64,000 nt of DNA from a bacterium (GTDB lineage: Bacteria > Patescibacteriota > Minisyncoccia > Moranbacterales > UBA1568), in the NCBI GenBank assembly GCA_021821305.1, contig JAKACP010000001.1, positions 330,453 to 394,452 on the forward strand, in the 5' to 3' direction. This document shows, piece by piece, positions 44,952 through 61,610 of the stretch. Position 1 is the stretch's first letter; every line of letters begins with the position of its first letter. Both the position numbers and the translations under genes were made by a program. The notes beneath the pieces were generated by a model. The model was not told the origin of the DNA and did not search any database. It saw only the letters and a list, made by a program, of their open reading frames with translations.

Positions 44952-45071
44952 GAGCCACGCGGAGCGTGGAAAACCCTTTCAGATTCAGAATTTTTTGGGG
45001 GGAATGCATTAGTGTCGCGCCTTCGGCGCGACCCCATTTCGGGTTCCAATGCAGACTTCCAATTTTGGCGG
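44952..45071. repeat. IR-A right arm (120 bp)
   Basis: Reverse complement identical to 43431-43550. Confidence 0.8.
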
Positions 45072-45339
45072 TGTGTATTAGACAACGTTCGAATGTATTT
45101 TGAGCTAAATCCTGACGATGAGCCCTAATCGCACGCGCGGAGCGCGTGGTGACTTGAAACTGCATTGTACGCTCGGATTGCGTGGTGATGCGAACCAAAG
45201 CGCCTCGGACACGCTCGCGGACTCGCGTGTGCAAAGACCAAAAAATTTCCTTGCATTTTTCTCGCGTCTCCTCCCCCCACCCCTCCGCCGCGAAGCGGAA
45301 AAAGAAATGGAAAGGAAATTTTTGGTTTTGCTTCGCCGT
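45068..45339. repeat. IR-B left arm (~272 bp), near-perfect inverted repeat of 47478-47750
   Basis: Sequence comparison (2 differences). Confidence 0.8.
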
Positions 45340-47115: not shown

Positions 47116-47477
47116 AGAGGTCTTTTTGAAGTTAAGGGAGCCAACCCCCGTCGTTTTATAATTTTCCTCAAAAACGGCGGGGGTTGTTGTGCGCGCACTG
47201 GGTGGGGCAAGCACATACAGATTTGTTTGTGCCTCAGCACAATCCATATTCCTTTGAATCACCACTAAACTCTCTCGAAGCCACCAAGCGAACACACACA
47301 ACACCGAAGCAGCCAGCGCGAGCGAATGCGAGCGGGCTATGCGAAGGCGGTTGTGTGTGGTTCGCGGACGTTAGAGTTACCACCAAACGCGGATACGGAT
47401 GCGCCTCGGTCGCCGTGAGGGTGGAGAAAAGAGCAATCAAAAGTGATAAACTAATAGTGCTTTTTTCGGAGACTGAA

Positions 47478-47750
47478 ACGGCGAAGCAAAACCAAAAATT
47501 TCCTTTCCATTTCTTTTTCCGCTTCGCGGTGGAGGGGGTGGGGGGAGGAGACGCGAGAAAAATGCAAGGAAATTTTTTGGTCTTTGCACACGCGAGTCCG
47601 CGAGCGTGTCCGAGGCGCTTTGGTTCGCATCACCACGCAATCCGAGCGTACAATGCAGTTTCAAGTCACCACGCGCTCCGCGCGTGCGATTAGGGCTCAT
47701 CGTCAGGATTTAGCTCAAAATACATTCGAACGTTGTCTAATACACACCGC
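47478..47750. repeat. IR-B right arm
   Basis: Reverse complement matches 45068-45339. Confidence 0.8.
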
Positions 47751-48211
47751 AGAAGTGAAAGAGGAGCCATTTTGTATGGCTCCTTTTTTGCTTCTATGAT
47801 GAACGCATTCGGAGTTTATGCCCCGAAGGGGTAAATCCCTCCCTTTCCGCATCAAGCTCATAGTATCGAGGGTGACCCGAGAGCCTCGAATGAGCAACAT
47901 AAAACCAAACCGCCGGTAAATGGCGGTTTTATTCTTTCTGATCTATAGATCTTCTTTACTGTATGATCCCTCTCTTTTGACTGTCACGGACAATCTTACT
48001 TTGGTCCCATAAGCTCGAGAAATTTCATGGGGTCTATCGAGAAACCGCCTATACGAACCGAGAGATGGAGGTGAGGGCCGAGAGAATAGCCCGTATTGCC
48101 GCTCTTGGCTACGGGGTCACCTTTTCCCACGTTGTCGCCCGCTTCTACACCGATTTCGGAAAGATGCATGTACATGGTCATGATACCCAATCCATGATCA
48201 ATGATGACGGT
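47747..48211. repeat. 465-bp direct repeat DR-1; includes the att-like copy of the tRNA-Ser 3' end, two terminator hairpins and the last 72 codons of an M23 peptidase gene. Identical to 60277-60741
   Basis: 100% identity at a constant offset of 12,530 bp. Confidence 0.85.
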
Positions 48212-48958
48212 ATTGCCGAAGTTTCTCAGGCTTTGGGCAAGGACCACCTTGCCGGAGTTCATGGCATATACCGACGTTCCCTCCGCTGCTCGAAAATCCG
48301 TGCCTTGATGGCTGAGACTTACGGATCCAGTCTGCCTCTTGTAGCCATAAGTATCGGTAACGGTAAGAGATCCATCAAGCGGTAAGCGGAACTCTCCGCT
48401 CCAGAGTCGTTCCGGGCCTATGATGGTGGTGACAGAGTTGAGGATAGCCGCGTCCCGTGACAAAGTGCTGGTAAGCTCGTGCTCCGCTTGGGGAGTATTG
48501 CCGCCAAGTTGCTCCGGGATGTCGAATTCTTCCGTAGCGACAACCCTTTGGCCGATCTCAAACTCCTCTTCGATTTTCCGGCCGTCCTTGAGGGTGAGGA
48601 CGATCGGATACGAACCGGGCTTTTTATGGAAATCGATTCCTACAAGTGCGGCAACCTTACCCTCATCAGCAAACACGGCAAGCGGCTTGCCATCAAGAGC
48701 AAGCGACTCGATGTTCGAGATATCGCTGATGCCGTCCAGGGTAATCCGCGCGGGCTCTCCCTGGATGAGAGCAGTGGGGAAAACGGAAAGCGATACCGGT
48801 TCCACGGCGGAAACAATGCCGGGTTTTTCTGCCTCCATGGCTTGTGATTCGGATTCTGCTTCAGGCTGGTCTTTTAGCTGTGGCAAGGCAAAGTAGAGAG
48901 CGAGGAATAAGGCTGGTAAAGTGAGCCAAAGGAGTGTTCTCATCCCTGGATTGTACAC
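47996..48958 (-). CDS. M23-family (LytM-like) metallopeptidase, paralog 1, with N-terminal TM anchor
   Basis: HxxxD (IDHGLG) and GNTGYSLGPHLHLSV motifs. Confidence 0.75.
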   Translation of the reverse strand: MYNPGMRTLLWLTLPALFLALYFALPQLKDQPEAESESQAMEAEKPGIVSAVEPVSLSVFPTALIQGEPARITLDGISDISNIESLALDGKPLAVFADEGKVAALVGIDFHKKPGSYPIVLTLKDGRKIEEEFEIGQRVVATEEFDIPEQLGGNTPQAEHELTSTLSRDAAILNSVTTIIGPERLWSGEFRLPLDGSLTVTDTYGYKRQTGSVSLSHQGTDFRAAEGTSVYAMNSGKVVLAQSLRNFGNTVIIDHGLGIMTMYMHLSEIGVEAGDNVGKGDPVAKSGNTGYSLGPHLHLSVRIGGFSIDPMKFLELMGPK

Positions 48959-49056
48959 TTCTCTGGTGGAATCGTGAAGACCGGTACTGCTTGGTCATTT
49001 ACATCAGCTTTTCAGTTGATAGCTTCCGGAAATCGTGCTATCGTGTGAGGGCGCTT

Positions 49057-49476
49057 ATGTCCAAAATAAAGAAAACGTCTCTTTTCGTCTTCGTGCTGGC
49101 CGTGATGCTTTCCACCGGAAGCTCGTGCGCTTTCCCCATGCTTCCGGCCCAAGCTTCTTCGGGGGCGATGCAAATGGGTGATCAAAGCGCTTCAGGCGAG
49201 CAGAGTGAAATCATGGATGGATATGATATGGGGTCGATGGCGCATGCGCCTCTTCCCCAAGAGCATGTGAAAACATGTTCGGCGGACTGCGGGCAGACTG
49301 TCGATGACGCGGTTACGACAAAGAAAGACAAAGAACTTTTGGAGCTTCCTGCTCTTGTTTCACAAGGTATTTTCATGCCCCCGTCGCCTCTCGATGGATC
49401 GGATCTCGAGGCTTTTGAGCGGTCAGAAATCCCGCCTTTAGGGGATGCTCTCCTCACCGTTGCCAAAAAAGAATAG
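49057..49476 (+). CDS. Secreted Met/His-rich small protein (candidate periplasmic copper-binding protein)
   Basis: Signal peptide; MQMGDQ and MDGYDMGSMAH motifs; lies in the copper gene context. Confidence 0.35.
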   Translation: MSKIKKTSLFVFVLAVMLSTGSSCAFPMLPAQASSGAMQMGDQSASGEQSEIMDGYDMGSMAHAPLPQEHVKTCSADCGQTVDDAVTTKKDKELLELPALVSQGIFMPPSPLDGSDLEAFERSEIPPLGDALLTVAKKE

Positions 49477-49618
49477 ATTGATCGAAGTGTCAGAAAGCTG
49501 AGACATTTTATCCTTGTGGATAATACTCTCTCCTTCTGGCATTTTTTGTTTCCGTTTCTTCGTGAGAGAAATGGATTTTAGCAGTCGGATCAAATAGTTA
49601 AGTCTTACATACAACCTT

Positions 49619-51259
49619 ATGGACAAGAAGAAAATAATTGTGGCGATCATAGCCATAGTCATCCTCGGCGCTCTCGCCTGGTATGGGTCGGTCGATCGCC
49701 GGATGAGAGTCGGCACCTCTGAAGAGGGGACGGCGAACCTGAACGCTCCGCCATCCGGAGATATACGGCAGGCTGTTCCGTCGGAAATCGTCGATCTCAA
49801 GGACGGTCAATCGATCGACCTTGCCATCACACCCGTCAAGAAAACGATCGCCGGGCGTACGGTGAAGATGCTCGGATACAACGGCTCCATTCCCGGGCCC
49901 ACCCTCCGTGTTCCGGAGGGTTCGGAGATTACCGTCAACCTGAAGAACGGCGGTGATATCGCCACGTCGCTCCATGCCCATGGAGTGCGGATGGAAAACC
50001 CGTTCGATGGGGTGCCGGGCGTGACTCAAAAGGAGATCGCTCCAGGTGAATCGTTCGCCTACAAGCTCAAGTTCACCGATCCGGGTGTCTTCTGGTATCA
50101 CCCCCATGTGAGAACGGATTACGCGGTCGAGTCAGGGCTCTATGCGAACATCATCGTGACGCCGAAGGATAGCGGCTATTTCCCGCCCGCCAACCGCGAG
50201 GTGCCGCTCATACTCGACGATATAGCGCTCGACAAGGACGGGATGCTTCCGTTCGATGCCAAGGTTGCGGATCATACCCTTATGGGGCGCTTCGGCAATG
50301 TCATGCTCGTGAACGGCGAGACGGACTACAAACTCCAAGCGAAACAAGGCGAGGTGGTGCGTCTCTATCTCACCAATGCGGCCAACACGAGACTCTTCAA
50401 CTTCACTCTTCCCGGAGCGAAGATGAAGCTGGTCGGGGCGGATGTGGGACGCTATGAAAAGGAAACCTTCGTGGAGGGCGTGCTTGTTGCTTCCGGCGAG
50501 CGTCGTGTCGTGGATGTTCTCTTTGAAAAGGCCGGCGAGTACGCGATGAAGCACGAGACTCCTGACAAGGAGTATGCTCTCGGAACGGTGTCCGTTTCCG
50601 CTGAAACCATCAGCCTCTCCTATACCGAAGAGTTTTCAGCGTTGCGGACGAACGCGGCCGTCGTCGATGAGTTGGAAAATCTCATGAATACGTATCTTGC
50701 GAAGAGTCCGGACAAGATCCTGAATCTTTCACTCGATATGGATCAGGAGATGCGTCAGGGTATGCCTATGGGAATGCACTCGATGAACTCGATGGGTGGA
50801 GGCGGCATGGCCATGTCGGATGCGGATATGGGCATGGGCGATGACGGAGACGCGTTGGAATGGGAGGACACGATGGCCGGTATGAACGCCCAGTCCACAT
50901 CGGACATGCTGGAATGGAAGCTCGTGGACGGCATGACGGGCAAGGTGAACGCGGATATCGATGACTGGAACTTCCGGACGGGCGACAAGGTCAAGATCCG
51001 TATCTTCAATGATCCGAAATCCCTGCATCCCATGCAGCACCCGATTCACTTCCATGGACAGCGCCTCATGGTGCTCTCGACGAACGGCGTGAAGAATGAC
51101 AACCCGGCATGGGTCGATACGGCGTTGGTAGCCACAGGCGACACGGTCGACATCCTGCTTGACGCCTCCAATCCCGGCACGTGGGTCGCACATTGTCATA
51201 TCCTGGAGCATGCGGAAAGCGGCATGATGCTCTCATACACCGTGGGAAAGACCGACTAA
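49619..51259 (+). CDS. Multicopper oxidase (CueO/laccase-like) with a Met-rich insert
   Basis: Cu-binding motifs LHAHG, WYHPH and HCHILEHAESGMM; Met-rich segment MRQGMPMGMHSMNSMGGGGMAM. Confidence 0.8.
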   Translation: MDKKKIIVAIIAIVILGALAWYGSVDRRMRVGTSEEGTANLNAPPSGDIRQAVPSEIVDLKDGQSIDLAITPVKKTIAGRTVKMLGYNGSIPGPTLRVPEGSEITVNLKNGGDIATSLHAHGVRMENPFDGVPGVTQKEIAPGESFAYKLKFTDPGVFWYHPHVRTDYAVESGLYANIIVTPKDSGYFPPANREVPLILDDIALDKDGMLPFDAKVADHTLMGRFGNVMLVNGETDYKLQAKQGEVVRLYLTNAANTRLFNFTLPGAKMKLVGADVGRYEKETFVEGVLVASGERRVVDVLFEKAGEYAMKHETPDKEYALGTVSVSAETISLSYTEEFSALRTNAAVVDELENLMNTYLAKSPDKILNLSLDMDQEMRQGMPMGMHSMNSMGGGGMAMSDADMGMGDDGDALEWEDTMAGMNAQSTSDMLEWKLVDGMTGKVNADIDDWNFRTGDKVKIRIFNDPKSLHPMQHPIHFHGQRLMVLSTNGVKNDNPAWVDTALVATGDTVDILLDASNPGTWVAHCHILEHAESGMMLSYTVGKTD

Positions 51260-51290
51260 GCAAATATTCAAATCGATAACGGAGAATCCT

Positions 51291-52121
51291 ATGCAAGATG
51301 AACACAGGCAGGAAAAAGACGAAGCCGGAGATCCGGTAGAGACTCGGGGAAAAGAAGGGGCGTCGGGTCGGGAGACGTGGATCATCGCCGGGGCGATCCT
51401 CTTGGGGAGCCTCATCGTCAGCGGGGGCATACTCTTCTCCCGTGGGACCTTTCAGAAAACATCCGATTCAGGCGCGACTGGAATACTGCAGCCGTCAGAA
51501 AATCCCTCGCCGATCGCGGAGCGGCCGGAGAGGCGGCCCGGCGAATCGGTGAAGGTCTCGACGGATGATGATGCCGTTTTGGGAGACAAGGATGCGCCGA
51601 TCACGCTGATCGAGTTTTCGGACTATGAGTGTCCATTCTGTAAACGCTCGTTCACTGATGTGCTTCCGGAGCTCAAGAAAACATATATCGACACAGGAAA
51701 AGTGAAACTCGTCTTCCGGGATTTCCCCCTGTCCTTCCATGCGAACGCCGGGAAGGAGGCGGAGGCGGCCGAGTGTGCGAGGAGCCTTGGGGATGATGTG
51801 ACGTACTACAAATTCCATGACCAGATCTTCACCAAAACCACTTCGAACGGGACTGGTTTGGCTCTTACGGAATTGCCTGCGATTGCGAAAAACCTTGGTC
51901 TCAACGTGAATCAGTTTCAGCAGTGTTTGGATTCGGGAAAGTTCAAAGACGAAGTAGCCAAGGATATGGCCGACGGGGAGGCGGCCGGTATTTCCGGTAC
52001 GCCATCATGGATTATCGGTGCTTCCAGCAAGGATGGCCAGATTGAGGGGCAGCTTGTCGTGGGAGCCCAGCCTTTCTCCGCGTTCAAGGCTATTATCGAT
52101 GAAAAACTCGGTAACAAGTAA
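51291..52121 (+). CDS. DsbA-family thiol:disulfide oxidoreductase, membrane-anchored
   Basis: CPFC active site in a thioredoxin fold. Confidence 0.7.
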   Translation: MQDEHRQEKDEAGDPVETRGKEGASGRETWIIAGAILLGSLIVSGGILFSRGTFQKTSDSGATGILQPSENPSPIAERPERRPGESVKVSTDDDAVLGDKDAPITLIEFSDYECPFCKRSFTDVLPELKKTYIDTGKVKLVFRDFPLSFHANAGKEAEAAECARSLGDDVTYYKFHDQIFTKTTSNGTGLALTELPAIAKNLGLNVNQFQQCLDSGKFKDEVAKDMADGEAAGISGTPSWIIGASSKDGQIEGQLVVGAQPFSAFKAIIDEKLGNK

Positions 52122-52127
52122 AAGATT

Positions 52128-52631
52128 ATGAGTAAGAAACAGCGAAAAATACCTTCCGCGGCCTGGTGGACTATCGGGTTAACTGTTGTCGTTATCGGGC
52201 TGATCGTGTTCCTTGGAGCAAGGTACTCCGGTCCTTCGAAAACCAATCGAGAGGTGGCTTTGTCGTGTACTACTGATATGGCTACCCGATTCCATATTCA
52301 TCCCAGCCTGGAGATTCGCATCAACGGCGAGAAACAGGTTATTCCTACGAATATCGGAGTCGATGCCAACTGCATGAATGCGCTCCATACCCACGGAACG
52401 AGCGGTGAAATCCATGTCGAGTCGCCGCAAAAACGAGACTTCACCCTTTCCGATTTCTTTGCGGTATGGGGCAAAACATACAGCAAAGATCAGATCCTCG
52501 ATTCCAAGGCTGATGAGAAATACATCATTCGCGAAACCGTAAACGGCCAAGAGGTGGGGGATTACGAAAATACCATCTTGCATGATAAGGACAAGATCGT
52601 TATTTTCTACGAGGAGAGAAATAAGGAGTGA
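52128..52631 (+). CDS. Hypothetical membrane-anchored His-rich protein
   Basis: ORF with TM anchor; HIHP...HTHGTSGEIH. Confidence 0.35.
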   Translation: MSKKQRKIPSAAWWTIGLTVVVIGLIVFLGARYSGPSKTNREVALSCTTDMATRFHIHPSLEIRINGEKQVIPTNIGVDANCMNALHTHGTSGEIHVESPQKRDFTLSDFFAVWGKTYSKDQILDSKADEKYIIRETVNGQEVGDYENTILHDKDKIVIFYEERNKE

Positions 52632-52667
52632 TGCCGCGGATCCGGTCAATGACGAAGGCTACAAGAT

Positions 52668-53213
52668 ATGAAAAACATCTGGTCTCCAAAAACCATTCTT
52701 CCCGCAGTCATGATCGCGGCGCTCTATGTCGTGGTAACCGTGTACCTCATGAATGCGGGGCTGGTGATGGATGCGATGTTCGGAACCCATTCGGCCGGAT
52801 ATAGGCAGAGTATCCTCATCGCGTTGCTTACGGGCATGTGGACGGCCATGAGCGCGCCCAGTCTGTTCCTCCTTGTCGTCGTCGCGATGCTTACCGGACT
52901 CAATCTCATGTTTGTCCTGGAGCGGCTCCGGACGGTCCGGTCTTCCGGGAAGATGCATCTGGCGGTAGGCGGGAGCTCCCTTCTTGGGATAGTGGGGAGC
53001 GGCTGTGCGAGTTGTGGACTGCCGATACTGGCCTTCCTGGGTCTCGGCGGCGCAGCCGCCTCCCTGCCCTTTCGGGGCATGGAGCTTTCCATCCTGACCG
53101 TCGCACTCCTTTCCGTATCCTTGTATATCCTGGTGAAAGGACGCGAACGGCAGGCGGTCTGTGCCGTCGGGACCATGGAATACCAGGATCGACACGTCGT
53201 CATTCCGGAATGA
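52668..53213 (+). CDS. Polytopic membrane protein with a CxxC motif (GSGCASCGLP)
   Basis: ORF with ~5 TM helices. Confidence 0.35.
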   Translation: MKNIWSPKTILPAVMIAALYVVVTVYLMNAGLVMDAMFGTHSAGYRQSILIALLTGMWTAMSAPSLFLLVVVAMLTGLNLMFVLERLRTVRSSGKMHLAVGGSSLLGIVGSGCASCGLPILAFLGLGGAAASLPFRGMELSILTVALLSVSLYILVKGRERQAVCAVGTMEYQDRHVVIPE

Positions 53214-53284
53214 TCTCCGACAGGCATGGAGATGAACGGGGGCAGAAGAATCGAAGTCCAAGAGAAAAGATCTTACCTCATAAC

Positions 53285-53677
53285 ATGAAGAATATGGAAT
53301 ACGGATACAAGCGCAGCGTATCGTTCCCTTTCGCCGATGCGGTCCTGAAGACGAAGGCGGAGCTCTCGAAGGAGGGATTCGGTGTCCTTACCGAGATCGA
53401 TGTGAAGGCGGCATTCAAGGAAAAACTCGGCGTGGAGCATGATGAGTATCTCATTCTCGGCGCATGCAACCCGAAGCTTGCCCAAAGAGCGCTCCAGGCG
53501 GAAAAGGGAATCGGCCTCTTCCTGCCTTGCAATGTCATCGTGTACAGGGAGGAAGGAGAGACAGTGGTCGCGACGATCCTCCCCGCCGCGGCAATGAGCG
53601 TGATCGGGAACCCGGCTTTGGACGAAGTCGCACGGGAAGCGGAGGAGAAACTGAAGAGGGCCGTCGATGCGGTCTGA
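53285..53677 (+). CDS. DUF302-domain protein
   Basis: Full-length DUF302 similarity. Confidence 0.55.
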   Translation: MKNMEYGYKRSVSFPFADAVLKTKAELSKEGFGVLTEIDVKAAFKEKLGVEHDEYLILGACNPKLAQRALQAEKGIGLFLPCNVIVYREEGETVVATILPAAAMSVIGNPALDEVAREAEEKLKRAVDAV

Positions 53678-53691
53678 CTATACGGAATGAT

Positions 53692-54402
53692 ATGGAATAC
53701 ATCTGGTTCATCTGGAGTCTGATATCGGTCGGCATCTGGCTGGCTATCTATCTTTCCCTGGACACGAGGGAGAAAAAGAAAGAAATGCTCATCGTCAGCC
53801 TGTGGACATCGCTCCTGGGCCTCACCGAACCGATTTTCGTTCCTGAATACTGGTCTCCTCCTTCGCTCTTCGATCTGGCCATGAAAACCGGGTTCGATAT
53901 CGAGAGTCTTGTTTTCTCTTTCGCTATCGGCGGCATAGCCGTGAGTCTGTATGAGCGGATCCTGCCGATCCGACATGTTTCCCTCTCAGCCGCAGAACAG
54001 CGCTCCGCCCGTCACGGATTTCATATCTGGGCGCTTCTTTCGGCGCCGGCGGTTTTTATCGTCCTGCTCCTCGCAGCCGATCTGAACCCGATTTACTCGG
54101 CGGTTGTCGCCATGGTTACCGGTGGACTGGCCACGTGGTATTGCCGGCCGGATCTCAAGAAGAAGATGTTCACGAGCGCTTTCATATTTCTTGCCCTCTA
54201 TTTCCTCTATTTTTTCACGCTTATCGCCATGTCGCCGGGCTATGTAGGACAGGTCTGGAATCTCCTGGCGATTTCAGGGATTCTGATCCTTGGTATTCCG
54301 CTCGAGGAGCTCTTGTTCGCGTGGAGTTTCGGGTTCATCTGGTCGAGCGTTTATGAACATGTCACATGGCGAAAATTTAACCAGAGCGCAAATTTATCTT
54401 AA
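53692..54402 (+). CDS. Membrane protein with lycopene-cyclase-domain-like PxEE motifs
   Basis: LTEPIFVPEYW and GIPLEELLFAW repeats. Confidence 0.35.
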   Translation: MEYIWFIWSLISVGIWLAIYLSLDTREKKKEMLIVSLWTSLLGLTEPIFVPEYWSPPSLFDLAMKTGFDIESLVFSFAIGGIAVSLYERILPIRHVSLSAAEQRSARHGFHIWALLSAPAVFIVLLLAADLNPIYSAVVAMVTGGLATWYCRPDLKKKMFTSAFIFLALYFLYFFTLIAMSPGYVGQVWNLLAISGILILGIPLEELLFAWSFGFIWSSVYEHVTWRKFNQSANLS

Positions 54403-54461
54403 GTCTTGTCATGGTATCATTGTATCTTGAGGTTATAAGTATCACCGATTACTAAAATAAT

Positions 54462-55403
54462 ATGTATGAAAAACCACAGGCACAATCTTCTTCTCTCGGA
54501 TCACATACGCCCTCTTTGACAGGCGCTAGGGACGCGCGCGCTCTCAAGATTGCCGGGTGGCTGACCGGAGTATACTTTGTCTTTGAGCTTGGTGTTGGCC
54601 TGTGGACAGGCTCAGTGTCTGTTACTTCTGACGCATTTCATACGTTCTCTGCCGTTGGCGGGGTATTGATTGCGGTCGTGGCGAGCGCCTATGCCAAGCG
54701 AGCGGCAACACCGGTTCAGACATTCGGACTTATACGAGCTGAGGTTGTCGGAGCTTTGTTGAATGGATTATTCCTCTTCGGCATGGCGGGATTTGTTCTT
54801 TGGATGGGGATCATGCGCCTACAAAATCCCATCGATCTTTCAGCGGGTACCATGTTCTTGGTAGCTATCGGAGGCCTTATAACTGAGATAATTTCCATGC
54901 GTCTGATGTGGGCGGGGCAAAAGGAGAACCTGAATATGAAGGGAGCCTTCTGGCATATCATTCAAACATTTGTCGGTAGCATTATCATTATTGTTTCGGC
55001 GCTCGTCATACAATTTACGGGATTTCTCCAAATCGATCCACTCCTTGGTATGGCATTTGGACTCGTATTGTTTTGGGCATCGTGGAAAATTATAAGAGAG
55101 GCTCTGCACATACTTTTAGATAACGTGCCAAAGGGCCTTGATCTCCATGATGTGAAAACTGTCATCGAAAAGATACCGGGGGTAGAAAACATCCATCATT
55201 TGCATGCGTGGGCTTTAACAAGCGGGAAAAATATCGTATCTGCTCACGTACGAATTACGGACATGGCGGAAGGCGTTCGTATTCAGAGGCAGATATACGC
55301 AATACTCACCAACGACTTCAACGTATATTTTTCTACAATACAAGTTGAAACCGAATGTTTAGAGCAAGAGACAGCGCAGGAGATAGATTTTTTAGGTAGG
55401 TAG
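54462..55403 (+). CDS. Cation diffusion facilitator (CzcD-like) metal efflux transporter
   Basis: 6 TM helices plus cytoplasmic domain; CDF signature; low-GC block begins here. Confidence 0.8.
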   Translation: MYEKPQAQSSSLGSHTPSLTGARDARALKIAGWLTGVYFVFELGVGLWTGSVSVTSDAFHTFSAVGGVLIAVVASAYAKRAATPVQTFGLIRAEVVGALLNGLFLFGMAGFVLWMGIMRLQNPIDLSAGTMFLVAIGGLITEIISMRLMWAGQKENLNMKGAFWHIIQTFVGSIIIIVSALVIQFTGFLQIDPLLGMAFGLVLFWASWKIIREALHILLDNVPKGLDLHDVKTVIEKIPGVENIHHLHAWALTSGKNIVSAHVRITDMAEGVRIQRQIYAILTNDFNVYFSTIQVETECLEQETAQEIDFLGR

Positions 55404-55447
55404 CAGATCACGATGATCACTAACCCGATAATAAACGGAACAAGACT

Positions 55448-57649
55448 ATGACTCTATATACTTGCCCCATGCATTCAAAGGTGCAACAAGACAAACCTGG
55501 ATTATGCCCCAAGTGTGGCATGAGACTTGTTAAGGCTGAAACAAAAACAGATCATAGTGCTCACGCTGGTCACGTCATGGGAGAACAGTCCAAAATGGGT
55601 TTCTGGGAGAAATTCAGGATGAGTATGTCCATGACGATGGGGATGGATCATACCGGTCTCGCTGGACGGGAAATGGCTCGCCTCATGGAGATTGACATCC
55701 GAAACAAGTTCTTCTTCGCGTTTATATTGACCATTCCGATCATCCTCTACTCACCCCTGGGCACGGAGTTTCTTGGGCTTAACCTTCCATCCCCATTTCC
55801 GCTACCATGGCTTCTTTTTCTTCTCACCACGCCGGTATTCTTCTATTCGGGTTGGATTTTTCTCTACTCGACATATTTTGCATTGAAAAATAGGACGCTC
55901 AATATGGCCGTACTTATTGCGGTTGGCATCACAGCTGCCTATGGATTCAGTATCTTACTTACCTTGATTGGTAGCGCTGACTCTTACTATGAAGCGGCGG
56001 CTATGCTTATTACGTTTGTTCTCTTCGGTCATTGGATGGAAATGAAGTCTCGCCGTGGAACAACTGATGCGCTGCAGGCACTTTTTAATCTCGTACCACC
56101 TCAAGCCAGAGTCTTCAAAGATGGTAAGGAGATAATGGTTGCAACGAGCGATATACAACTTGGAGACATCATTATTCTTAAGCCGGGAGACAAAGTTCCA
56201 GTTGATGGTGAAATCATTGAAGGCGAGACTGCCATTGACGAATCCCTCGTTACTGGAGAATCGATTCCTACAGCGAAGAAGATCGGGGATCAGGTGATTG
56301 GCGGATCAATCAACACTGCTGGCTCGGTCAAATTTAAGGCAACAAAAATCGGTAAGGATACCGCTCTTGCTCAAATTGTCCGGATGGTTGAGGAGGCGCA
56401 GAACTCAAAAGCCCCTGGACAAAGAATCGCTGACAGATTTGCGAAATATCTGGTCATTGGGGCTATCGGGTCAGGACTTCTCGTTTTTATTATCTGGTAT
56501 TTTATTGTCGGTTCACCATTGCTTTTGGCGCTTTCTTTTGCGATCGCTACGGTTGTCATTGCTTGCCCAGATGCTTTGGGGTTAGCCACTCCGACGGCGG
56601 TAGCGGTCGGAACGGGTCTCGGAGCTAAACATAATATTCTTATCAAAGATGCTCCGACTCTTGAGCAAGTCTCAAAAATTCAAGCCATTGTACTCGACAA
56701 AACAGGCACCCTCACTGACGGAAAGCCGAAAGTAACCGACATAGCTACAGTGGATGGATTTGAGGCAAATGAAGCACTTCGTTTAGTTGGAGCGGCTGAA
56801 GCGAAATCATCTCACCCTTTGGCCGGGGCTGTCCTTGAGGAACTTAAAAAACGAAGCCTGACATTGCCAGAGTCAGTTGATAAATTTGAAAACCTTTCTG
56901 GTTTGGGAGTGAAAGCCATCGTTGATGGGAAAGCTGTGCTCATAGGGACAGTTAAGCTTATGAAAGAAAGTAACATTGCTCTCGGTGAGTTGGAACAAAA
57001 AATCAATGAGTATCTGGAAAGAGGAGAAACGATTATGATTCTCGCGGTTGATGGCACTATCAAGGCAGTAATTGGCGCGACTGATCCCATAAAACCCAAT
57101 GCCATAAAAGCAGTAGAACGTCTGAAGCTACTTGGAATCGAAATCGCCATGATTACCGGTGATAATAAAATGACCGCAGATAAAGTAGCGAGTCAGATTG
57201 GTATAGAAAGAGTGTTTGCAGAAGTGATGCCAGAAGATAAGGCGAGTTATGTCAAAAAGCTCCAGCAGGAAGGAAAATTCACGGCAATGGTTGGCGACGG
57301 TGTCAACGATGCTCCCGCGCTTGCTCAATCGGATGTCGGTATTGCGATTGGTGCGGGCACGGATGTCGCGATTGAGACAGCGAAAGTTGTTCTCATGAAG
57401 TCTGACCCGCTAGACATCCTTCGAGCAATAACTTTGAGCAAGGCGACAGTTCGCAAGATGAAGCAGAATCTTTTCTGGGCGTCCATCTACAATATTCTTG
57501 CCATACCAGTTGCTGGTGGCATTTTGTACCCGAGTTTTGGCATCATGCTCCGTCCGGAATTTGCAGCGCTTTTGATGAGTGTGTCTTCGATCATTGTTGC
57601 AGTAAATGCCGTGCTATTGAAGCGAGTTGAATCAGAACTTAAGGCTTAA
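55448..57649 (+). CDS. copA: Heavy-metal (copper-type) P1B ATPase with an N-terminal Cys-rich metal-binding module; TM6 motif reads CPD
   Basis: DKTGTLT, TGDN and GDGVNDAP motifs; N-terminal CPMH...CPKCGM; IACPDALGLATP. Confidence 0.85.
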   Translation: MTLYTCPMHSKVQQDKPGLCPKCGMRLVKAETKTDHSAHAGHVMGEQSKMGFWEKFRMSMSMTMGMDHTGLAGREMARLMEIDIRNKFFFAFILTIPIILYSPLGTEFLGLNLPSPFPLPWLLFLLTTPVFFYSGWIFLYSTYFALKNRTLNMAVLIAVGITAAYGFSILLTLIGSADSYYEAAAMLITFVLFGHWMEMKSRRGTTDALQALFNLVPPQARVFKDGKEIMVATSDIQLGDIIILKPGDKVPVDGEIIEGETAIDESLVTGESIPTAKKIGDQVIGGSINTAGSVKFKATKIGKDTALAQIVRMVEEAQNSKAPGQRIADRFAKYLVIGAIGSGLLVFIIWYFIVGSPLLLALSFAIATVVIACPDALGLATPTAVAVGTGLGAKHNILIKDAPTLEQVSKIQAIVLDKTGTLTDGKPKVTDIATVDGFEANEALRLVGAAEAKSSHPLAGAVLEELKKRSLTLPESVDKFENLSGLGVKAIVDGKAVLIGTVKLMKESNIALGELEQKINEYLERGETIMILAVDGTIKAVIGATDPIKPNAIKAVERLKLLGIEIAMITGDNKMTADKVASQIGIERVFAEVMPEDKASYVKKLQQEGKFTAMVGDGVNDAPALAQSDVGIAIGAGTDVAIETAKVVLMKSDPLDILRAITLSKATVRKMKQNLFWASIYNILAIPVAGGILYPSFGIMLRPEFAALLMSVSSIIVAVNAVLLKRVESELKA

Positions 57650-57662
57650 CTAGGACAGTGCT

Positions 57663-58250
57663 ATGAAGAAAACTATTGCTATTTCTGTTCTTCTTCTCGC
57701 TCTCATGGAAGGTATTTCCTGGTGGGCTTATAAGTCATGGTCTTCTCAAGGCACTGATGAACCCTCTTGGCCTTCAGAGGAAAAGCAAGTACCAGCGCCT
57801 TTGTCTAATGCGGTAAGTCAACAGCCAATCGAAAAACCCGAAAGTATCCCACCGAGTGACAACCAAACCTCAACTACTCCCGAAACTTCTCCTGCCGATC
57901 TTCTTCCAAAGGGGATGGGTTCCAGCAGCTCAGAAGGCAGTTTCCCGCTACCCAGCACTGAAGTAGTTAATGGAGTGACGGAACGCACTATTCATATGGG
58001 GGTGCGGCAATACGAATGGGACCCGAAAATCATTCGGGCCAAGCAAGGAGAATTAGTGCGCCTCATAATACACAATGCTGATGTAAAGCACGGTATTGCT
58101 ATTCCTGAGCTTGGAGTGAACGAAGACATCTCTCCCGATGGCGCAGTAGTTACCTTTCAGGCAACAAAGAAAGGAACCTTTGAGTTCTTTTGTTCTGTCT
58201 GGTGTGGGGAAGGGCATATGGAAATGACAGCGAAGCTTGTTATAGAATAG
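57663..58250 (+). CDS. Secreted cupredoxin-like (CuA-type) domain protein
   Basis: H...CSVWCGEGHMEM matches the CuA-like Cx3CGx2Hx2M pattern; signal peptide. Confidence 0.6.
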   Translation: MKKTIAISVLLLALMEGISWWAYKSWSSQGTDEPSWPSEEKQVPAPLSNAVSQQPIEKPESIPPSDNQTSTTPETSPADLLPKGMGSSSSEGSFPLPSTEVVNGVTERTIHMGVRQYEWDPKIIRAKQGELVRLIIHNADVKHGIAIPELGVNEDISPDGAVVTFQATKKGTFEFFCSVWCGEGHMEMTAKLVIE

Positions 58251-58292
58251 GAAGCCCCCTATCATTTTTGCCTGTATTCAAGGAGCTTCTAA

Positions 58293-59063
58293 GTGGACAA
58301 TTACATAACGATGGAAATCAAAAAAAAGACAATTCTGCCGATCCTCATACTCGTGTTTGTTGGTATCTCACCCATCATTTTTCTCTCAAGAGAAGCAGAA
58401 GAAGAGCAGAACACTAACCCTTCTTCCCAGGCGACACAGGAAGACATAACTCCTCCAGACTCTAAAAAAGAAAACGACGCTCAGGAAGGCATGGTATTAA
58501 ACGTCCCGTTTACTGCTCAGGCTCCGCTTGGTAATTGGAGCGACCCGAGACAACAGAACGGCTGCGAGGAAGCGGCCACTCTTATGGCTATGGCTTGGGT
58601 GGAAGGAAACACTTTGACGCCGGAAGAAGCTGAAAGAGAAATCACGGCCATCGCGGATTATGAACTTCAAAACATGGGGCATTTCCATGATTCATCAGCC
58701 GAAGATCTGGTGAGATACATTTTCAAAGGATATTTCGGTTATGAGAATGTTGAGATCAAGTACGATATTGATGCCGAAGATATTAAAAATGAACTAAGAC
58801 GTGGCAATCTGATCTTAGTACCTGCGAATGGTAAAACATTGAATAACCCTTTCTATACAGAGCCGCCACTGGAGCATATGGTCGTCATCCGCGGGTATGA
58901 CAGTGAAACAAAAGAATTCATCGTGAATGATTCCGGTACAAGCCGAGGTGAGTTATTTCGCTACGCTGAAGATGTCATTATGAACGCCATCTACGACTAC
59001 CCAACCGGCTATCATGAGCCAGTAAATGAGCTGAGAAAAGCAATGATTATTGTTAAAAAATAA
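58293..59063 (+). CDS. C39-like (papain-fold) cysteine peptidase domain protein, membrane-anchored
   Basis: QQNGCEEAATLMAMAW (Cys) and HMVVIRGYD (His). Confidence 0.5.
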   Translation: MDNYITMEIKKKTILPILILVFVGISPIIFLSREAEEEQNTNPSSQATQEDITPPDSKKENDAQEGMVLNVPFTAQAPLGNWSDPRQQNGCEEAATLMAMAWVEGNTLTPEEAEREITAIADYELQNMGHFHDSSAEDLVRYIFKGYFGYENVEIKYDIDAEDIKNELRRGNLILVPANGKTLNNPFYTEPPLEHMVVIRGYDSETKEFIVNDSGTSRGELFRYAEDVIMNAIYDYPTGYHEPVNELRKAMIIVKK

Positions 59064-59079: not shown

Positions 59080-60057
59080 TTACCTTGAGCCCATAAGCTC
59101 GAGAAATTTCTGGGGATCTATCGAGAAACCGCCTATGCGGACCGAGAGATGGAGATGGGGGCCGAGAGAATAGCCCGTATTACCGCTCTTAGCTATGAGA
59201 TCTCCTTTTTCCACGCTATCACCCAGTTTTGCATCGGTTTCGGAAAGGTGCATGTAAAGCGTCATTAAACCCAAACCATGGTCAATGATGACGGTATTCC
59301 CATAGTTCCTGAAGCTCTTGGAAAAGACTACCTTGCCAGAGTTCATGGCATAGACAGATGTCCCCTCAGACGCTCGAAAATCTGTGCCTTGATGCATGAG
59401 ACTTACGGATCCTGTCTGCCTGCTGTAACCATAGACATCTGTGACAGTAGGAGATCCGTTGAGAGGGAGCCGGAATTGTCCGCTCCAGAGCCTCTCTGGG
59501 CTTATGGTTGTGGTAATAGAGTTAAGGATGACGGTGTCCTGCGCTAAGGTACTGGTGAGCTCATGCTCCGCTTGGGGCGTATTGCCTCCCAGCTGCTCAG
59601 GGATGTCAAATTCTTCCGTAGCAACAGTCCTTTTCCCAACCTCAATCTTTTCTTCGATTTTCTGACCGTCTTCAAGAGTGAGAACGATTGGATACACACC
59701 GGGTTTTTTATGTGGATCGATACCGACTAGCGCCACAAGCCTTCCTTCATCAACAAATACGGAGAGTGGCTTGTCATCGAGGGTAAGTGATTGAATGGGT
59801 GCGGCAGAGACGAGGCCGGCTATGGTAATCCGCGCGGGCTCTCCCTGGATGAGAGTAGTCGGGAAGACAGAAAGTGATACCGGCTCTACGGTGGAGATGG
59901 GGCTAGATTCTTCCGTCTGTATGAGTGGTGATTCAAGTGTTGCTTCGGGCTGACTTTTTAGTTGCGGCACGATAAAATATGTCGCGAGGAATAAAATTGG
60001 TATAGCACTCCAGAGAAGTAGTTTCATCACTCTATTATACAGCTTTTCCATCAGCAT
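59080..60057 (-). CDS. M23-family metallopeptidase, paralog 2 (diverged)
   Basis: Same architecture and motifs as paralogs 1 and 3. Confidence 0.75.
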   Translation of the reverse strand: MLMEKLYNRVMKLLLWSAIPILFLATYFIVPQLKSQPEATLESPLIQTEESSPISTVEPVSLSVFPTTLIQGEPARITIAGLVSAAPIQSLTLDDKPLSVFVDEGRLVALVGIDPHKKPGVYPIVLTLEDGQKIEEKIEVGKRTVATEEFDIPEQLGGNTPQAEHELTSTLAQDTVILNSITTTISPERLWSGQFRLPLNGSPTVTDVYGYSRQTGSVSLMHQGTDFRASEGTSVYAMNSGKVVFSKSFRNYGNTVIIDHGLGLMTLYMHLSETDAKLGDSVEKGDLIAKSGNTGYSLGPHLHLSVRIGGFSIDPQKFLELMGSR

Positions 60058-60276
60058 TTCACCTTTGACTATTAAACCAATATATTAGGGAAGGAGAGGA
60101 TAGAGGAGACACAAGGCTGTCTCATTATGATAAAATGAGACATAGCCTGTCCTGTGTCTCATTTGTCTCGTTTTATCCTCAAAACCGCGACCCGAGAGCC
60201 TCAATTCACTCGTCGGCCAAGACCCCCAAGAAATCCCTCAACAGCTTGATTTCTCAAAGTTCTAGACCGATGACGC

Positions 60277-60741
60277 CCGCAGAAGTGAAAGAGGAGCCAT
60301 TTTGTATGGCTCCTTTTTTGCTTCTATGATGAACGCATTCGGAGTTTATGCCCCGAAGGGGTAAATCCCTCCCTTTCCGCATCAAGCTCATAGTATCGAG
60401 GGTGACCCGAGAGCCTCGAATGAGCAACATAAAACCAAACCGCCGGTAAATGGCGGTTTTATTCTTTCTGATCTATAGATCTTCTTTACTGTATGATCCC
60501 TCTCTTTTGACTGTCACGGACAATCTTACTTTGGTCCCATAAGCTCGAGAAATTTCATGGGGTCTATCGAGAAACCGCCTATACGAACCGAGAGATGGAG
60601 GTGAGGGCCGAGAGAATAGCCCGTATTGCCGCTCTTGGCTACGGGGTCACCTTTTCCCACGTTGTCGCCCGCTTCTACACCGATTTCGGAAAGATGCATG
60701 TACATGGTCATGATACCCAATCCATGATCAATGATGACGGT
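60277..60741. repeat. 465-bp direct repeat DR-2 (identical to 47747-48211)
   Basis: Sequence comparison. Confidence 0.85.
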
Positions 60742-61473
60742 TTTTCCGAAATTCCGAAGGGTTCCGGTATAGGCCACTTCCCCGGAGTTTATGGCATGGA
60801 CGGGTGTTCCTTCGGCAGCCCGGAAATCCGTTCCCAGGTGACTCAGGCTCACCGACCCCGTTTTTCTGCTGTAGCCGTAGGTGTCGGTGACCATCGGATC
60901 GCCTCCAAGAGGAAGTCGGAATGGACCGCTCCATAGCTGTTCCGGGTTTACCTTCGCGGTCACCGAGTCGAGCACGGACGAATCCGTGGACAGGGTGGCC
61001 GTAAGTTCGTGTTCGGCTTTGGGAGTATTGCCACCCAGTTGTTCCGGGATATCGAATTCCGCCGTAGCCACTACCCGCGGCTTCACTTCCAGGTTTTCCT
61101 TGAATATCCGGCTATCATCCAACGTGAGGACGAGCGGATACGAGCCTGGCTTCTTATGGAAATCGATACCGACCAGCGCGGCCATCCCGCTCTCATCGGA
61201 AAATACGGGAACGGGCTTGTCATCGAAAGTGAGTGATTCGATGTCAGAGAGGGAAGCGACGCCGCGTATGATGATCCGCGCGGGCTCTCCCGGGATGGCG
61301 GCAGCCGGGTCAGGAGCAAGGGATACCAGTGTCTCGGGCGAGGGCATGCCGGGTTTCTCTGCCTCTTCCCGTGGCGGTTGAGGTGCCTTCTCGGGATTAT
61401 TTTTTTGCTCCGGCACAACAAAATACAGAATCAGCAAGAGTATGGGGAGAGTGATCGCGAGAAGTGTTTTCAT
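60526..61473 (-). CDS. M23-family metallopeptidase, paralog 3
   Basis: M23 motifs; 3' end identical to paralog 1. Confidence 0.75.
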   Translation of the reverse strand: MKTLLAITLPILLLILYFVVPEQKNNPEKAPQPPREEAEKPGMPSPETLVSLAPDPAAAIPGEPARIIIRGVASLSDIESLTFDDKPVPVFSDESGMAALVGIDFHKKPGSYPLVLTLDDSRIFKENLEVKPRVVATAEFDIPEQLGGNTPKAEHELTATLSTDSSVLDSVTAKVNPEQLWSGPFRLPLGGDPMVTDTYGYSRKTGSVSLSHLGTDFRAAEGTPVHAINSGEVAYTGTLRNFGKTVIIDHGLGIMTMYMHLSEIGVEAGDNVGKGDPVAKSGNTGYSLGPHLHLSVRIGGFSIDPMKFLELMGPK

Positions 61474-61610
61474 CTAAAAAGTATACGATTCTCTCGCGAT
61501 TTTGGAAAGGAGAAAATCCCTCATCCTCTCCGTCGCGGGAACGGAACATGCTATACTCGCGAGGAATTCATACTGCCGGGTGTCGGCATTTATCGCTGAT
61601 TGAAAGACCC

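Follow-up and report, generated by a model that had tools for sequence, protein, structure and literature searches.

Copper genes as probable cargo of a composite, recombinase-linked island at a tRNA-Ser gene of a Moranbacterales genome

The copper-related genes of a Moranbacterales bacterium (Patescibacteriota; GenBank assembly GCA_021821305.1) were analysed within a 64,000-nucleotide stretch of contig JAKACP010000001.1 (positions 330,453 to 394,452 of the forward strand). This whole stretch is referred to as the window and all coordinates below are given in it. The genes, located at 49057-59063, were found inside a composite island of 16.8 kb (43431-60276), which lies between a tRNA-Ser(GCT) gene and the native downstream DNA of that tRNA. 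They are probably the cargo of this island at the 3' end of tRNA-Ser(GCT), and the island would belong to a tRNA-Ser-targeting family driven by a large serine recombinase (LSR). The island structure is taken as established; the order of events and the copper function we infer. The first 4.3 kb of the island encode the recombinase, and the remaining 12.5 kb constitute the copper unit, which ends in a sequence designated d. The related loci and contigs fetched for comparison carry L numbers. The features defining the architecture are the following:

43347..43436, + strand, tRNA-Ser(GCT) gene (ARAGORN; Rfam tRNA 49.8 bits)
43326..44930, - strand, large serine recombinase (Pfam Resolvase, Recombinase, Zn_ribbon_recom)
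43431, junction X, tRNA end joined to a
43431..43550, repeat a, core CCGC and 3' end of the recombinase gene, 120 nt, 100% complementary to 44952-45071
44952..45339, inverted junction copy, with a' at 44952-45071, core GCGG at 45068-45071 and beta' at 45068-45339; its reverse complement is beta.CCGC.a
45068, junction Y, a' joined to beta' (inverted intact beta.CCGC.a)
47474..47750, repeat beta, right end of the 4.3-kb recombinase element, attR = beta.CCGC.c, core 47747-47750
47747, junction Z, beta joined to c
47747..48211, direct repeat c, copy 1: core, terminator hairpin, tRNA-Ser remnant, intergenic DNA and the last 216 nt of an M23 peptidase gene
60106..60280, + strand, right island end d, 175 nt, attR = d.CCGC.c, core 60277-60280
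60277, junction W, d joined to c
60277..60741, direct repeat c, copy 2: native DNA downstream of tRNA-Ser and the 3' end of the native M23 peptidase 3 gene
60526..62651, native right flank: M23 peptidase 3 (60526-61473, - strand) and a PLD-family gene (61464-62651, + strand) (Pfam)

By comparison with relatives, the whole 43431-60276 segment is extra DNA, because the relatives share a frame of tRNA-Ser, M23 and a flanking gene (L004) or of M23, PLD and the flanking gene (L007). The divergent M23/PLD pair of the window is found together with the flanking gene in L007, and the flanking gene occurs also in L004. The first-pass annotation had regarded the left part of the copper genes as host-like, resembling the core genome. 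This description was not sustained, as the left half too sits inside the insert between tRNA-Ser and its native downstream DNA. The low-GC block at 43.4-47.7 kb, the tRNA-Ser at the boundary, the 465-nt perfect direct repeat and the third M23 gene were additional to what that annotation had described.

The 3' end of tRNA-Ser(GCT) (...TTTCCGC/CA) forms the left attachment-site arm, giving attL = tRNA.CCGC.a with the core at 43431-43434. The same tRNA-Ser.CCGC.a junction was detected in L042 (anticodon GGA) and L044 (anticodon GCT), where the recombinase likewise abuts tRNA-Ser at ...CCGC. At the other end, beta.CCGC is followed by host DNA in L042, L043 and L044. The core CCGC is common to all four junctions of the window, and a symmetry analysis of the attachment half-sites gave no clear dyad. 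The first 4.3 kb are a complete small element, with junctions X and Z as its attL and attR between the tRNA and c. Fourteen tRNA genes are present in the window, with clusters at 8.3-9.1, 26.4-27.0 and 40.1-41.2 kb. Among them, an insertion was observed only at tRNA-Ser(GCT) at 43.3 kb; tRNA-Ser(TGA) (41118-41205) is unoccupied.

Within the small element, the recombinase is enclosed by the 120-nt inverted repeats a/a' and a cargo cassette by the approximately 277-nt inverted repeats beta'/beta. This layout, including the inverted arrangement of repeat a, recurs in diverged copies in L011 (93.6% nucleotide identity), L026, L042, L043 and L044. The enclosure of both modules by inverted repeats is conserved in relatives at 80-94% identity. 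An origin of the inverted repeats as snap-back assembly artefacts was ruled out, since the same architecture occurs in 80-94% identical copies from other assemblies. An inversion at the CCGC cores would flip the recombinase or the cassette module and leave the junctions unchanged, with the C-terminal tail of the recombinase swapped.

The recombinase matched PF00239 (6e-19), PF07508 (7e-15), PF13408 (2e-7) and the phrog_95 integrase (E 2e-79), and carries an N-terminal YTRKS motif. Its open reading frame (ORF) spans the attachment core, resulting in 534 aa in the integrated state and 518 aa across the beta.CCGC.a junction. All of the best 120 protein clusters were at least 79% identical to it, with lengths of 500-647 aa; such a spread is as expected if the tail is read from the flanking DNA. 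Those named among the best 120 clusters belong to Pacebacteria, Liptonbacteria, Shapirobacteria, Minisyncoccia or Patescibacteria group. The recombinase has spread horizontally, because it is 80-92% identical between genomes whose RecG proteins are 37-40% identical and because its GC content stays at 40-42% irrespective of the host GC.

The other island end, d, contains GAGACA/TGTCTC hairpins and terminates in ...GTTCTAGACCGATGACGCCCGC, which resembles a tRNA T-arm. The similarity to the T-arm and acceptor strand of a tRNA covers the final 22 nt of d, and the end of beta shows it too. The identity of d to the ends of the copper clusters in L003, L026 and L027 was 88-90% at the nucleotide level, compared with 73-77% for the neighbouring coding DNA. 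Fourteen metagenome contigs contain the exact terminus, and 15 different sequences flank it on the right; many of these are terminator hairpins, and in one case the flank is the following tRNA of an array. To the left of d, these contigs carry accessory cargo, namely copper clusters (L036, L038), DUF7380/DUF4209, DUF3644, a ResIII-family helicase, a PrnB-like protein and family-less proteins. Scanning of viral contigs for the d end gave none.

The pair L026 and L027 is 99.55% identical up to CCGC, after which a and the recombinase (80% identical to that of the window) follow in L026 and a sequence designated x in L027. Sequence x follows an intact tRNA-Ser(GGA)...CCGC in the relative L035, and d.CCGC in L027 and L036. 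From this pairing, tRNA-Ser.CCGC.x represents the empty attB, d.CCGC.x the attR, and d.CCGC.a the junction expected of an excised or tandem island. The d.CCGC.a junction was detected in L026 and as a remnant in L003, and is compatible with both a circle and a tandem array. The assignment of d as the right end of an island is based on the split of L026 and L027 at CCGC, on the position of x after tRNA-Ser(GGA) in L035 and on the variable flanks in the 14 contigs. Judged by junction Z, d.CCGC.c in the window joins this island end to the native DNA downstream of tRNA-Ser(GCT).

Two other assignments of d were considered. That d is a small RNA gene, equipped with a promoter and a terminator of its own, was rejected as the main interpretation; terminator hairpins do follow d and the sequence folds well (z = -6.3), but Rfam gave nothing, the inner helix is lost in subfamilies, the left flanks are accessory and the DNA after d is native to tRNA-Ser in L027 and L036. 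As the sequence following d in these two contigs is native tRNA-Ser downstream DNA, the terminators are assigned to the targeted tRNA. An attB belonging to the copper cluster was rejected as well, since copper genes are missing from the vicinity of most copies of d. At its left (60106-60170), d consists of repeated GAGACA/TGTCTC half-sites around TGnTAAAAT; this part is conserved in many copies and was flagged as terminator-like by a pattern scan; it could be a terminator, an operator array or a set of accessory recombination sites.

The copper unit starts with the gene of a first M23 peptidase and contains eleven ORFs between 49057 and 59063, all in one strand direction and separated by intergenic gaps of 6-142 nt. 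All eleven had been listed at first pass and were recovered by ORF calling and Pfam/NCBIfam searches; the domain searches supported every metal-related assignment. The genes of the copper unit are:

47996..48958, - strand, M23 peptidase 1, chimeric (Pfam M23 E 4e-31)
49057..49476, + strand, Met/His-rich secreted or membrane-anchored protein; no family match; homologue at the same position in L020 with 74% identity
49619..51259, + strand, three-domain CueO-like multicopper oxidase (MCO) (Cu-oxidase_3/_2/Cu-oxidase E 1e-32 / 4e-31 / 1e-15)
51291..52121, + strand, membrane-anchored DsbA-family thiol-disulfide oxidoreductase (Thioredoxin_4 1e-29; CPFC motif)
52128..52631, + strand, His-rich single-pass membrane protein; HIH and HTH motifs, two Cys; GC 47.8%
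52668..53213, + strand, polytopic CxxC membrane protein, CASC motif; follows DsbA in L004, L020 and L038
53285..53677, + strand, DUF302 protein (Pfam E 4.5e-24), 92% identical to the L020 protein
53692..54402, + strand, lycopene-cyclase-domain membrane protein (Lycopene_cyc PF18916 E 1e-16; PLEE motif), last gene of the higher-GC half
54462..55403, + strand, cation diffusion facilitator (CDF) transporter (Cation_efflux 2e-31, ZT_dimer; TIGR01297 226 bits against a cutoff of 82), first gene of the low-GC half
55448..57649, + strand, P1B-type copper ATPase (E1-E2 2e-56; TIGR01511 590 bits against a cutoff of 397)
57663..58250, + strand, membrane-anchored CuA-type cupredoxin (Cupredoxin_1 1.8e-8, COX2 2.9e-8)
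58293..59063, + strand, secreted or anchored Peptidase_C39_2-like protein (Peptidase_C39_2 1.2e-13, PF13529)
59080..60057, - strand, M23 peptidase 2, GC 49%, travelling with the low-GC half; homologous M23-d arrangement in L003 and L036

The GC content of the background (1-43346) was 57.2%. The left half of the copper unit (48212-54402) had 53.9% GC and third-position GC (GC3) of 0.54-0.73 by gene, and the right half (54403-60276) had 46.4% GC and GC3 of 0.42-0.51. A third low-GC block (43431-47746; 44.6% GC) starts at tRNA-Ser and encodes the large serine recombinase. A GC step at about 54.4 kb had been reported at first pass and is real, but its size was overstated, having been given as 60% against 42%. 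The tetranucleotide L1 distances to the background were 0.226 for the left half and 0.514 for the right half, compared with 0.154 +/- 0.021 (maximum 0.194) for 5-kb chunks of the background. The left half is therefore only marginally atypical in composition, and the right half is strongly foreign. The tetranucleotide usage of the right half resembles loci of 43-49% GC.

The two halves were compared with a copper cluster conserved in bacteria of the candidate phyla radiation (CPR), represented by L023-L027 from JGI and NCBI. In this cluster, HMA-ATPase and DUF411 are followed by two small proteins, then by MCO and DsbA, further small proteins, SHOCT and DUF302, and lastly by an ATPase of 685-698 aa, the cupredoxin and sometimes a CDF. 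The identities of the window proteins to this cluster were 77-79% for MCO, 70-71% for DsbA, 65-66% for DUF302, 76-77% for the ATPase and 64-66% for the cupredoxin. The window retains the conserved order; the two halves differ in their nearest relatives. The left half is nearest to L020, a 199-kb contig with 55% GC (MCO 87%, DUF302 92%, CxxC protein 82%, DsbA 79%, Met-rich protein 74% and M23 75%), and L004 has the order tRNA-Ser(GCT)-M23-MCO-DsbA-CxxC-DUF302-flank. The right half is nearest to L003, L023, L026, L036 and L038, with ATPases 73-77% identical.

By these similarities, the left half (chimeric M23 peptidase 1, Met-rich protein, MCO, DsbA, CxxC protein and DUF302) corresponds to a chromosomal locus of related CPR genomes with high GC, tRNA-Ser-M23-MCO. 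The right half (ATPase, cupredoxin, M23 peptidase 2 and d) matches island-borne clusters of lower-GC CPR lineages. The homologies thus show that the copper unit is a mosaic, in which two versions of a single conserved CPR copper cluster, diverged from each other, are joined near 54.4 kb. The His-rich, Lycopene_cyc, CDF and C39-like genes had no counterpart in any of the relatives fetched and look like single-gene additions. The His-rich gene (47.8% GC) is placed between the DsbA (54.9%) and CxxC (58.8%) genes, which adjoin each other in L004 and L020. At least two acquisition layers had been suggested at first pass; more than one was indeed detected, and the number is refined to at least three blocks plus the additions. 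The layers are not unrelated islands, both halves being diverged versions of the same cluster.

These comparisons also bear on a rather unlikely alternative, in which only the 4.3-kb element is mobile, the copper cluster has long resided beside tRNA-Ser and M23, and d is a secondary attachment site. The lower GC of the right half would then result from its replacement by homologous recombination with the DNA of a lower-GC relative. In its favour, L004 and L020 carry M23-MCO-DsbA-CxxC-DUF302 in an apparently chromosomal position, in L004 next to a tRNA-Ser(GCT), and the left half is near the host composition. The small element also has its own complete attL and attR around a plain tRNA/c site, and L026 and L027 could be read as the occupied and empty attB at d. 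However, most copies of d are not beside copper genes, their left flank being variable cargo and their right flank chromosomal or terminator DNA. In L035, the intact tRNA-Ser(GGA) is natively followed by x, the sequence found after d in L027 and L036, and d.CCGC.x is therefore an attR and not an attB. Furthermore, the native locus of relatives has the form tRNA-Ser...M23-3/PLD/flank gene, so that 43431-60276 is extra, and the duplication of c is left unexplained.

In the case of the multicopper oxidase, all four copper-binding motifs (HAH, HPH, HPIHFH and HCHILEHAESGM) were detected. The three Cu-oxidase domains and the Met-rich insert, with 13 Met in residues 376-430, agree with the oxidase described at first pass. 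At its N-terminus the oxidase has a simple hydrophobic anchor, which is not preceded by a twin-arginine (Tat) signal. The best NCBIfam match was CueO NF008205 with 182 bits, which is under the equivalog cutoff of 525. The CPFC DsbA and the DUF302 protein of the earlier list were both confirmed by their Pfam matches (Thioredoxin_4 1e-29 and DUF302 4.5e-24). The 'PxEE membrane protein' of that list is indeed a membrane protein with a PLEE motif, and is now specified as Lycopene_cyc PF18916 (1e-16). The Met-rich, His-rich and CxxC proteins had no family in Pfam or NCBIfam, and the His-rich protein had neither a PDB match nor a tblastn match in any related locus. For these three and the C39-like protein, searches of PDB, Pfam, NCBIfam or PHROGs yielded PF13529 as the only family. 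The CxxC membrane protein matched no DsbB, DsbD, VKOR or Scs family model; with its CASC motif it is a candidate redox partner of DsbA.

The CDF protein had been described as CzcD-like, and its family stands (TIGR01297 226 bits), but the transport site in transmembrane helices 2 and 5 (TM2/TM5), aligned to ZnT1, is HA-HT and not HD-HD or DD-HD. Among the best 150 representatives from a library of 1.8 billion proteins, 101 had HDHD, and HA-HT or HT-HA was present in most of the closest relatives. Neither of these two forms was seen among the more distant full-length CDF matches checked.

The ATPase contains the P-type motifs DKTGT, TGES, HP and GDGxND at 417, 269, 455 and 616, respectively. Its TM6 motif is CPD (at 373) instead of CPC or CPH, followed by YNILAIP at 681 in TM7 and MSVSS at 710 in TM8. 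CPD was kept in all the close homologues fetched (L001-L003, L023, L025-L027). At the N-terminus no HMA domain was detected (no PF00403); this part contains an HMBD domain (PF19335 1e-10) with a zinc-ribbon-like motif and a His/Met-rich stretch. The best PDB matches were Cu(I) CopA structures. The earlier assignment as a copA P1B ATPase therefore holds for the family (TIGR01511 590 bits) and the core motifs, but CPD takes the place of CPC and the CxxC HMA domain is missing. The CPD subtype was reported once before, as a novel variant in three rhizobial CopB-like ATPases (PMC5552934). The window ATPase resembles these CopB/P1B-3-like enzymes in the TM6 CPD, the YN(x)4P motif and the MSxSS-type TM8. 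In contrast to them, it has an N-terminus with a CPxH...CPxCGM HMBD and a Met/His-rich stretch, belongs to a CPR host and is always accompanied by a CuA-type cupredoxin.

In the AlphaFold2 (AF2) model of the cupredoxin, a single N-terminal helix is connected by a disordered linker to a domain at about residues 95-195, which reached pLDDT values of 84-98. The predicted CuA ligands H143, C177, C181, H185 and M188 align to those of the Thermus CuA domain (2cua), and these ligands together with H111 and H137 were invariant in 119-120 of 120 homologues. The complete CuA-like ligand set noted at first pass is thereby supported by both alignment and fold. The best Foldseek match was 2cua_A (E 6e-10, rmsd 1.9 A over 101 columns, TM-score 0.72 on the target), followed by the CuA domains of nitrous-oxide reductases; the NCBIfam scores for CoxB and NosZ were far under the cutoffs. 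No oxidase genes were found beside the cupredoxin in this locus or in the related loci.

The cupredoxin had also been said to stand alone. It follows the CPD-type ATPase directly in every fetched locus carrying that ATPase; the distance is 13 nt in the window, and 13-25 nt over the window, L003, L023, L026, L036 and L038. In its gene order, the CuA-type cupredoxin is the constant partner of the CPD-type ATPase. A role as a periplasmic copper chaperone was proposed at first pass. CPR cells are generally described as having no outer membrane, and it is doubtful that 'periplasmic' is a suitable term for such a cell. The C39-like gene had no PDB or PHROG match.

In the function proposed for the cluster, the ATPase would pump Cu(I) out of the cytoplasm and the tethered CuA-type cupredoxin would receive or redox-buffer the exported copper on the outward-facing side of the membrane. 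Oxidation of Cu(I) to Cu(II) would be the task of the anchored CueO-like oxidase, and DsbA with the CxxC membrane protein would repair thiols mis-oxidised by copper. The likeness to the Scs and Dsb systems, a DsbA-family protein with a CxxC membrane protein in a copper-stress locus, is a functional analogy only.

The copper cluster resembles E. coli CopA/CueO and the plasmid pco/cop systems in having a P1B ATPase and a three-domain MCO with a Met-rich insert and four copper motifs. It differs from them in the membrane anchor of the oxidase, the missing Tat signal and the score below the CueO equivalog cutoff. CueR/CopY/CsoR and the Cus/Pco partners are not present, and DsbA, the CxxC and DUF302 proteins and the cupredoxin are extra. 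The cupredoxin shares the fold and all five ligand positions with the CuA domains of ba3 oxidase subunit II (2cua) and nitrous-oxide reductase. In contrast to these, it is a stand-alone protein with one helix instead of two, with no subunit I or NosZ domain near it, with the invariant H111 and H137 and with an export ATPase as its partner. The CupA-CopA pair of S. pneumoniae (PMC7558416) also combines an anchored cupredoxin-fold protein having Cys/Met copper ligands with a neighbouring copper ATPase gene. However, the window protein keeps H-C-C-H-M, is encoded downstream of the ATPase and is predicted to face outward, while CupA acts on the cytoplasmic side. CupA (4f2e) was absent from the best 60 PDB sequence matches and the best 50 fold matches of the cupredoxin; it can be considered its nearest functional analogue, with no similarity detected.

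An improbable alternative for the function is an extracytoplasmic redox module, where the CuA cupredoxin passes electrons to the multicopper oxidase, O2 is reduced and the ATPase metallates the cuproproteins. Its product would be a minimal oxygen-consuming or metal-oxidising chain and not primarily detoxification. This would suit the cupredoxin, which has the invariant ligands and fold of an electron-transfer CuA centre and not of a Cu(I) chaperone, and also the island's lack of a copper-responsive regulator. Export ATPases are described as serving cuproprotein maturation, CopA for CutO and CcoI for cbb3 oxidase (PMC8456105, PMC8475189). On the other hand, the island contains no electron donor, quinol-oxidising or cytochrome component. 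Metal-stress loci typically have features such as the Met-rich oxidase insert, Met/His-rich proteins, a DsbA pair and a CDF, and the cluster is found on mobile islands together with other resistance and defence cargo.

The GC step is not a chimeric join, since two independent assemblies cross it contiguously: the ENA contig L001 (48085-61265, 99.9%) and the Logan contig L002 (48742-59853, 100%). It is very improbable that the mixed composition is an assembly or binning artefact joining the contigs of two organisms, even though the window repeats of 120, 277 and 465 nt exceed typical k-mers, short-read assemblies of the same population break there and the differences between assemblies cluster inside c, because three assemblies give the step identically, L001 runs on from d via c to M23 peptidase 3 on a 451-kb contig and the repeat architecture is reproduced in diverged copies elsewhere.

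The three M23 paralogues (47996-48958, 59080-60057 and 60526-61473) are 71-73% identical. In split BLAST searches, the last 72 aa of M23 peptidase 1 were of the M23 peptidase 3 type, and the first 248 aa were nearest to the M23 of L020 and L003 (72-74%), with a sharp breakpoint at 48211/48212. M23 genes adjoin copper genes in seven of ten contexts (L003, L004, L006, L007, L020, L036 and L005, the last with weak ATPase matches only), and had no adjacent copper genes in L019, L021 and L022. The grouping of C39-like and M23 peptidases with metal genes had been called unusual at first pass. The M23-copper neighbourhood is recurrent and not obligate, and a C39-like gene occurs in this island only. 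A functional partnership of M23 with the copper genes is disfavoured, because three of four additional M23 contexts had no copper genes. Considering the recurrent but not obligate neighbourhood and the chimeric M23 peptidase 1, the most suitable reading of M23 is that of an anchor gene of the chromosome, located next to a hot spot of recombination, which would be co-transferred with the modules and serve as a substrate of homologous recombination. No match was obtained from the JGI metagenome contigs scanned with the M23 alignment.

The two copies of c, of 465 nt each and 100% identical, bracket the copper genes, and the identity collapses at 48212. The modules would have been joined by site-specific recombination at the CCGC cores and by homologous recombination or gene conversion via the M23 paralogues and c. 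Initially, a small recombinase element would have resided at tRNA-Ser beside the chromosomal M23-MCO cluster of a relative, with an older end d further to the right. Excision between the outer attL and the attR of d would then have captured the intervening DNA, giving d.CCGC.a as in L026. Integration into the tRNA-Ser/c site of the present genome would have followed, and finally gene conversion would have homogenised c up to 48211. A Campbell-type insertion of a circle through c could represent an alternative history.

Several points count against the island and copper interpretation. Two attR-type junctions sharing the right arm c are impossible by one canonical LSR integration, and several multi-step histories fit the arrangement with none singled out, so that the capture and conversion steps are put forward conditionally. 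Compared with the window, ENA L001 (12324-12426) has 16 differences over 13 kb, all in c copy 2 (60408-60516); the perfect 465-nt identity may accordingly be strain-specific or a polishing effect. The beta.CCGC.c-M23-1 stretch, which forms the left junction of the copper unit, is present only in the assembly of the window, as the ENA assembly breaks at the repeats. For this genome itself, neither an empty site nor a circular junction was found, and no candidate for a recombination directionality factor was recognised. The right arms of the attachment sites are highly variable, which is unusual among LSR attB sites. With regard to function, every statement made here rests on homology, and a copper-sensing regulator (CueR, CopY, CsoR) is absent from the island. 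The CPD motif of the ATPase and the HA-HT site of the CDF make the substrate assignments of both proteins tentative, and the outward orientation of the cupredoxin domain is predicted by the positive-inside rule only.

The 16 differences in c copy 2 fit two once-distinct copies under conversion; either the c copies are still being converted in the population, or one of the assemblies carries a polishing artefact. Repeat c holds, at 47821-47850 and 60351-60380, a 30-nt tRNA-Ser 3' remnant ending in ...AATCCCTCCCTTTCCGC. The sequence ATCAAGCTCATAG after this remnant resembles the native sequence 3' of tRNA-Ser(GCT) in L004, ATCTGTTTGATAG, and a d-like fragment, GACCCGAGAGCCTCGAAT, lies approximately 30 nt beyond the remnant. 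The remnant looks like the scar of a still older insertion at the same tRNA.

Known LSRs include the phage-type integrases phiC31 and Bxb1, Ccr of SCCmec and TndX of Tn5397. In common with LSR elements, the island has a recombinase (about 500 aa) comprising Resolvase, Recombinase and zinc ribbon domains, a short common core, occupied and empty sites in relatives and resistance cargo. In contrast to those elements, the family of the window targets the extreme 3' end of tRNA-Ser with variable right arms, its recombinase ORF crosses the core and its hosts are CPR bacteria. Inverted copies of an intact junction enclose the recombinase and, likewise, the cassette, and the ends beta and d mimic the T-arm and acceptor end of a tRNA, from which tandem accretion may follow. 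Insertion at a tRNA 3' end, tRNA-end remnants left behind and the stacking of several elements are also features of tRNA-linked tandem-accretion islands, which classically use tyrosine integrases. Unlike these, the window has a serine recombinase, a core of 4 nt and a 465-nt repeat made of downstream DNA and part of M23 instead of a tRNA end.

Copper islands, LSR elements and tRNA-linked islands are each of known kinds, and the mobile-element aspect is newer than the copper genes. Genomic islands were predicted in bulk in Patescibacteria, with recombinases and copper unmentioned (PMC12455944). In the searchable literature, including that study, no description of the enzymes, target sites or ends of CPR genomic islands was found. 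The same literature gave no account of this recombinase family, its tRNA-Ser target, the inverted-junction architecture, the d end or the pairing of a CPD ATPase with a CuA cupredoxin in CPR.

It is tentatively suggested that the mobile-island family is undescribed in the searchable literature and may be a major CPR-wide vehicle of accessory genes, with the copper cluster as a recurrent cargo across CPR phyla. Such a family would combine a near-invariant LSR spanning its own core with insertion at the extreme 3' end of tRNA-Ser. Its recombinase and cargo modules would lie inside inverted junction copies and be potentially invertible, and its tRNA-mimicking ends beta and d would let further islands and neighbouring genes accrete and become co-mobilised.

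CPR bacteria are ultra-small, have tiny genomes and live as episymbiotic, largely non-respiring cells. The locus shows a multi-gene copper system in circulation among their lineages, which bears on the handling of metal and oxidative stress in such cells. It provides testable attachment sites and tRNA-Ser as a defined target, and its recombinase retains 80-92% identity between genomes with 37-40% identical RecG. The signature d end can be used for finding islands in metagenomes, and the cupredoxin offers biochemistry a small, soluble CuA-like protein. A recombinase with simple sites could be of interest for genome engineering based on large serine integrases.

The cassette of the small element encodes the following proteins, all assigned by Pfam:

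45413-45619, + strand, HTH_XRE
45741-46040, + strand, ArsR
46069-46710, + strand, nitroreductase
46732-47115, + strand, DoxX_2

This HTH-ArsR-nitroreductase-DoxX cassette (45129-47686) has terminal inverted repeats of approximately 212 nt and behaves as a separate unit. Similarity to the window begins exactly at 45129 in L010, by an ATP-synthase operon, and in L012, by a bAvd gene, with no recombinase alongside. An identical nitroreductase protein was detected on 22 contigs from many samples, and some of its contexts (L010, L012) are without the recombinase. The cargo of the cassette differs between copies, being ArsR-nitroreductase-DoxX in the window, Fic in L043 and AHSA1, DUF4440 and DUF1761 in L044. 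In L042 (GCA_964597575.1, 3769-9589) the cassette at tRNA-Ser(GGA) carries CsoR, an HMA-ATPase, a beta-propeller protein, HMA-DsbD_2 and a small cupredoxin; a type I restriction-modification system comes next after it. A 147-aa ORF upstream of the recombinase (44923-45366, - strand) had no family match.

An 826-kb NCBI contig encodes proteins identical to those of the window. The closest homologues of the M23 peptidases and the cupredoxin carry the names Candidatus Moranbacteria/Moraniibacteriota, Minisyncoccota or Dojkabacteria. L003 and L008, which contain CPR-type M23 and copper genes, were deposited as 'uncultured Bdellovibrionales' metagenome-assembled genomes. They may be mis-binned, their gene content resembling Moraniibacteriota loci.

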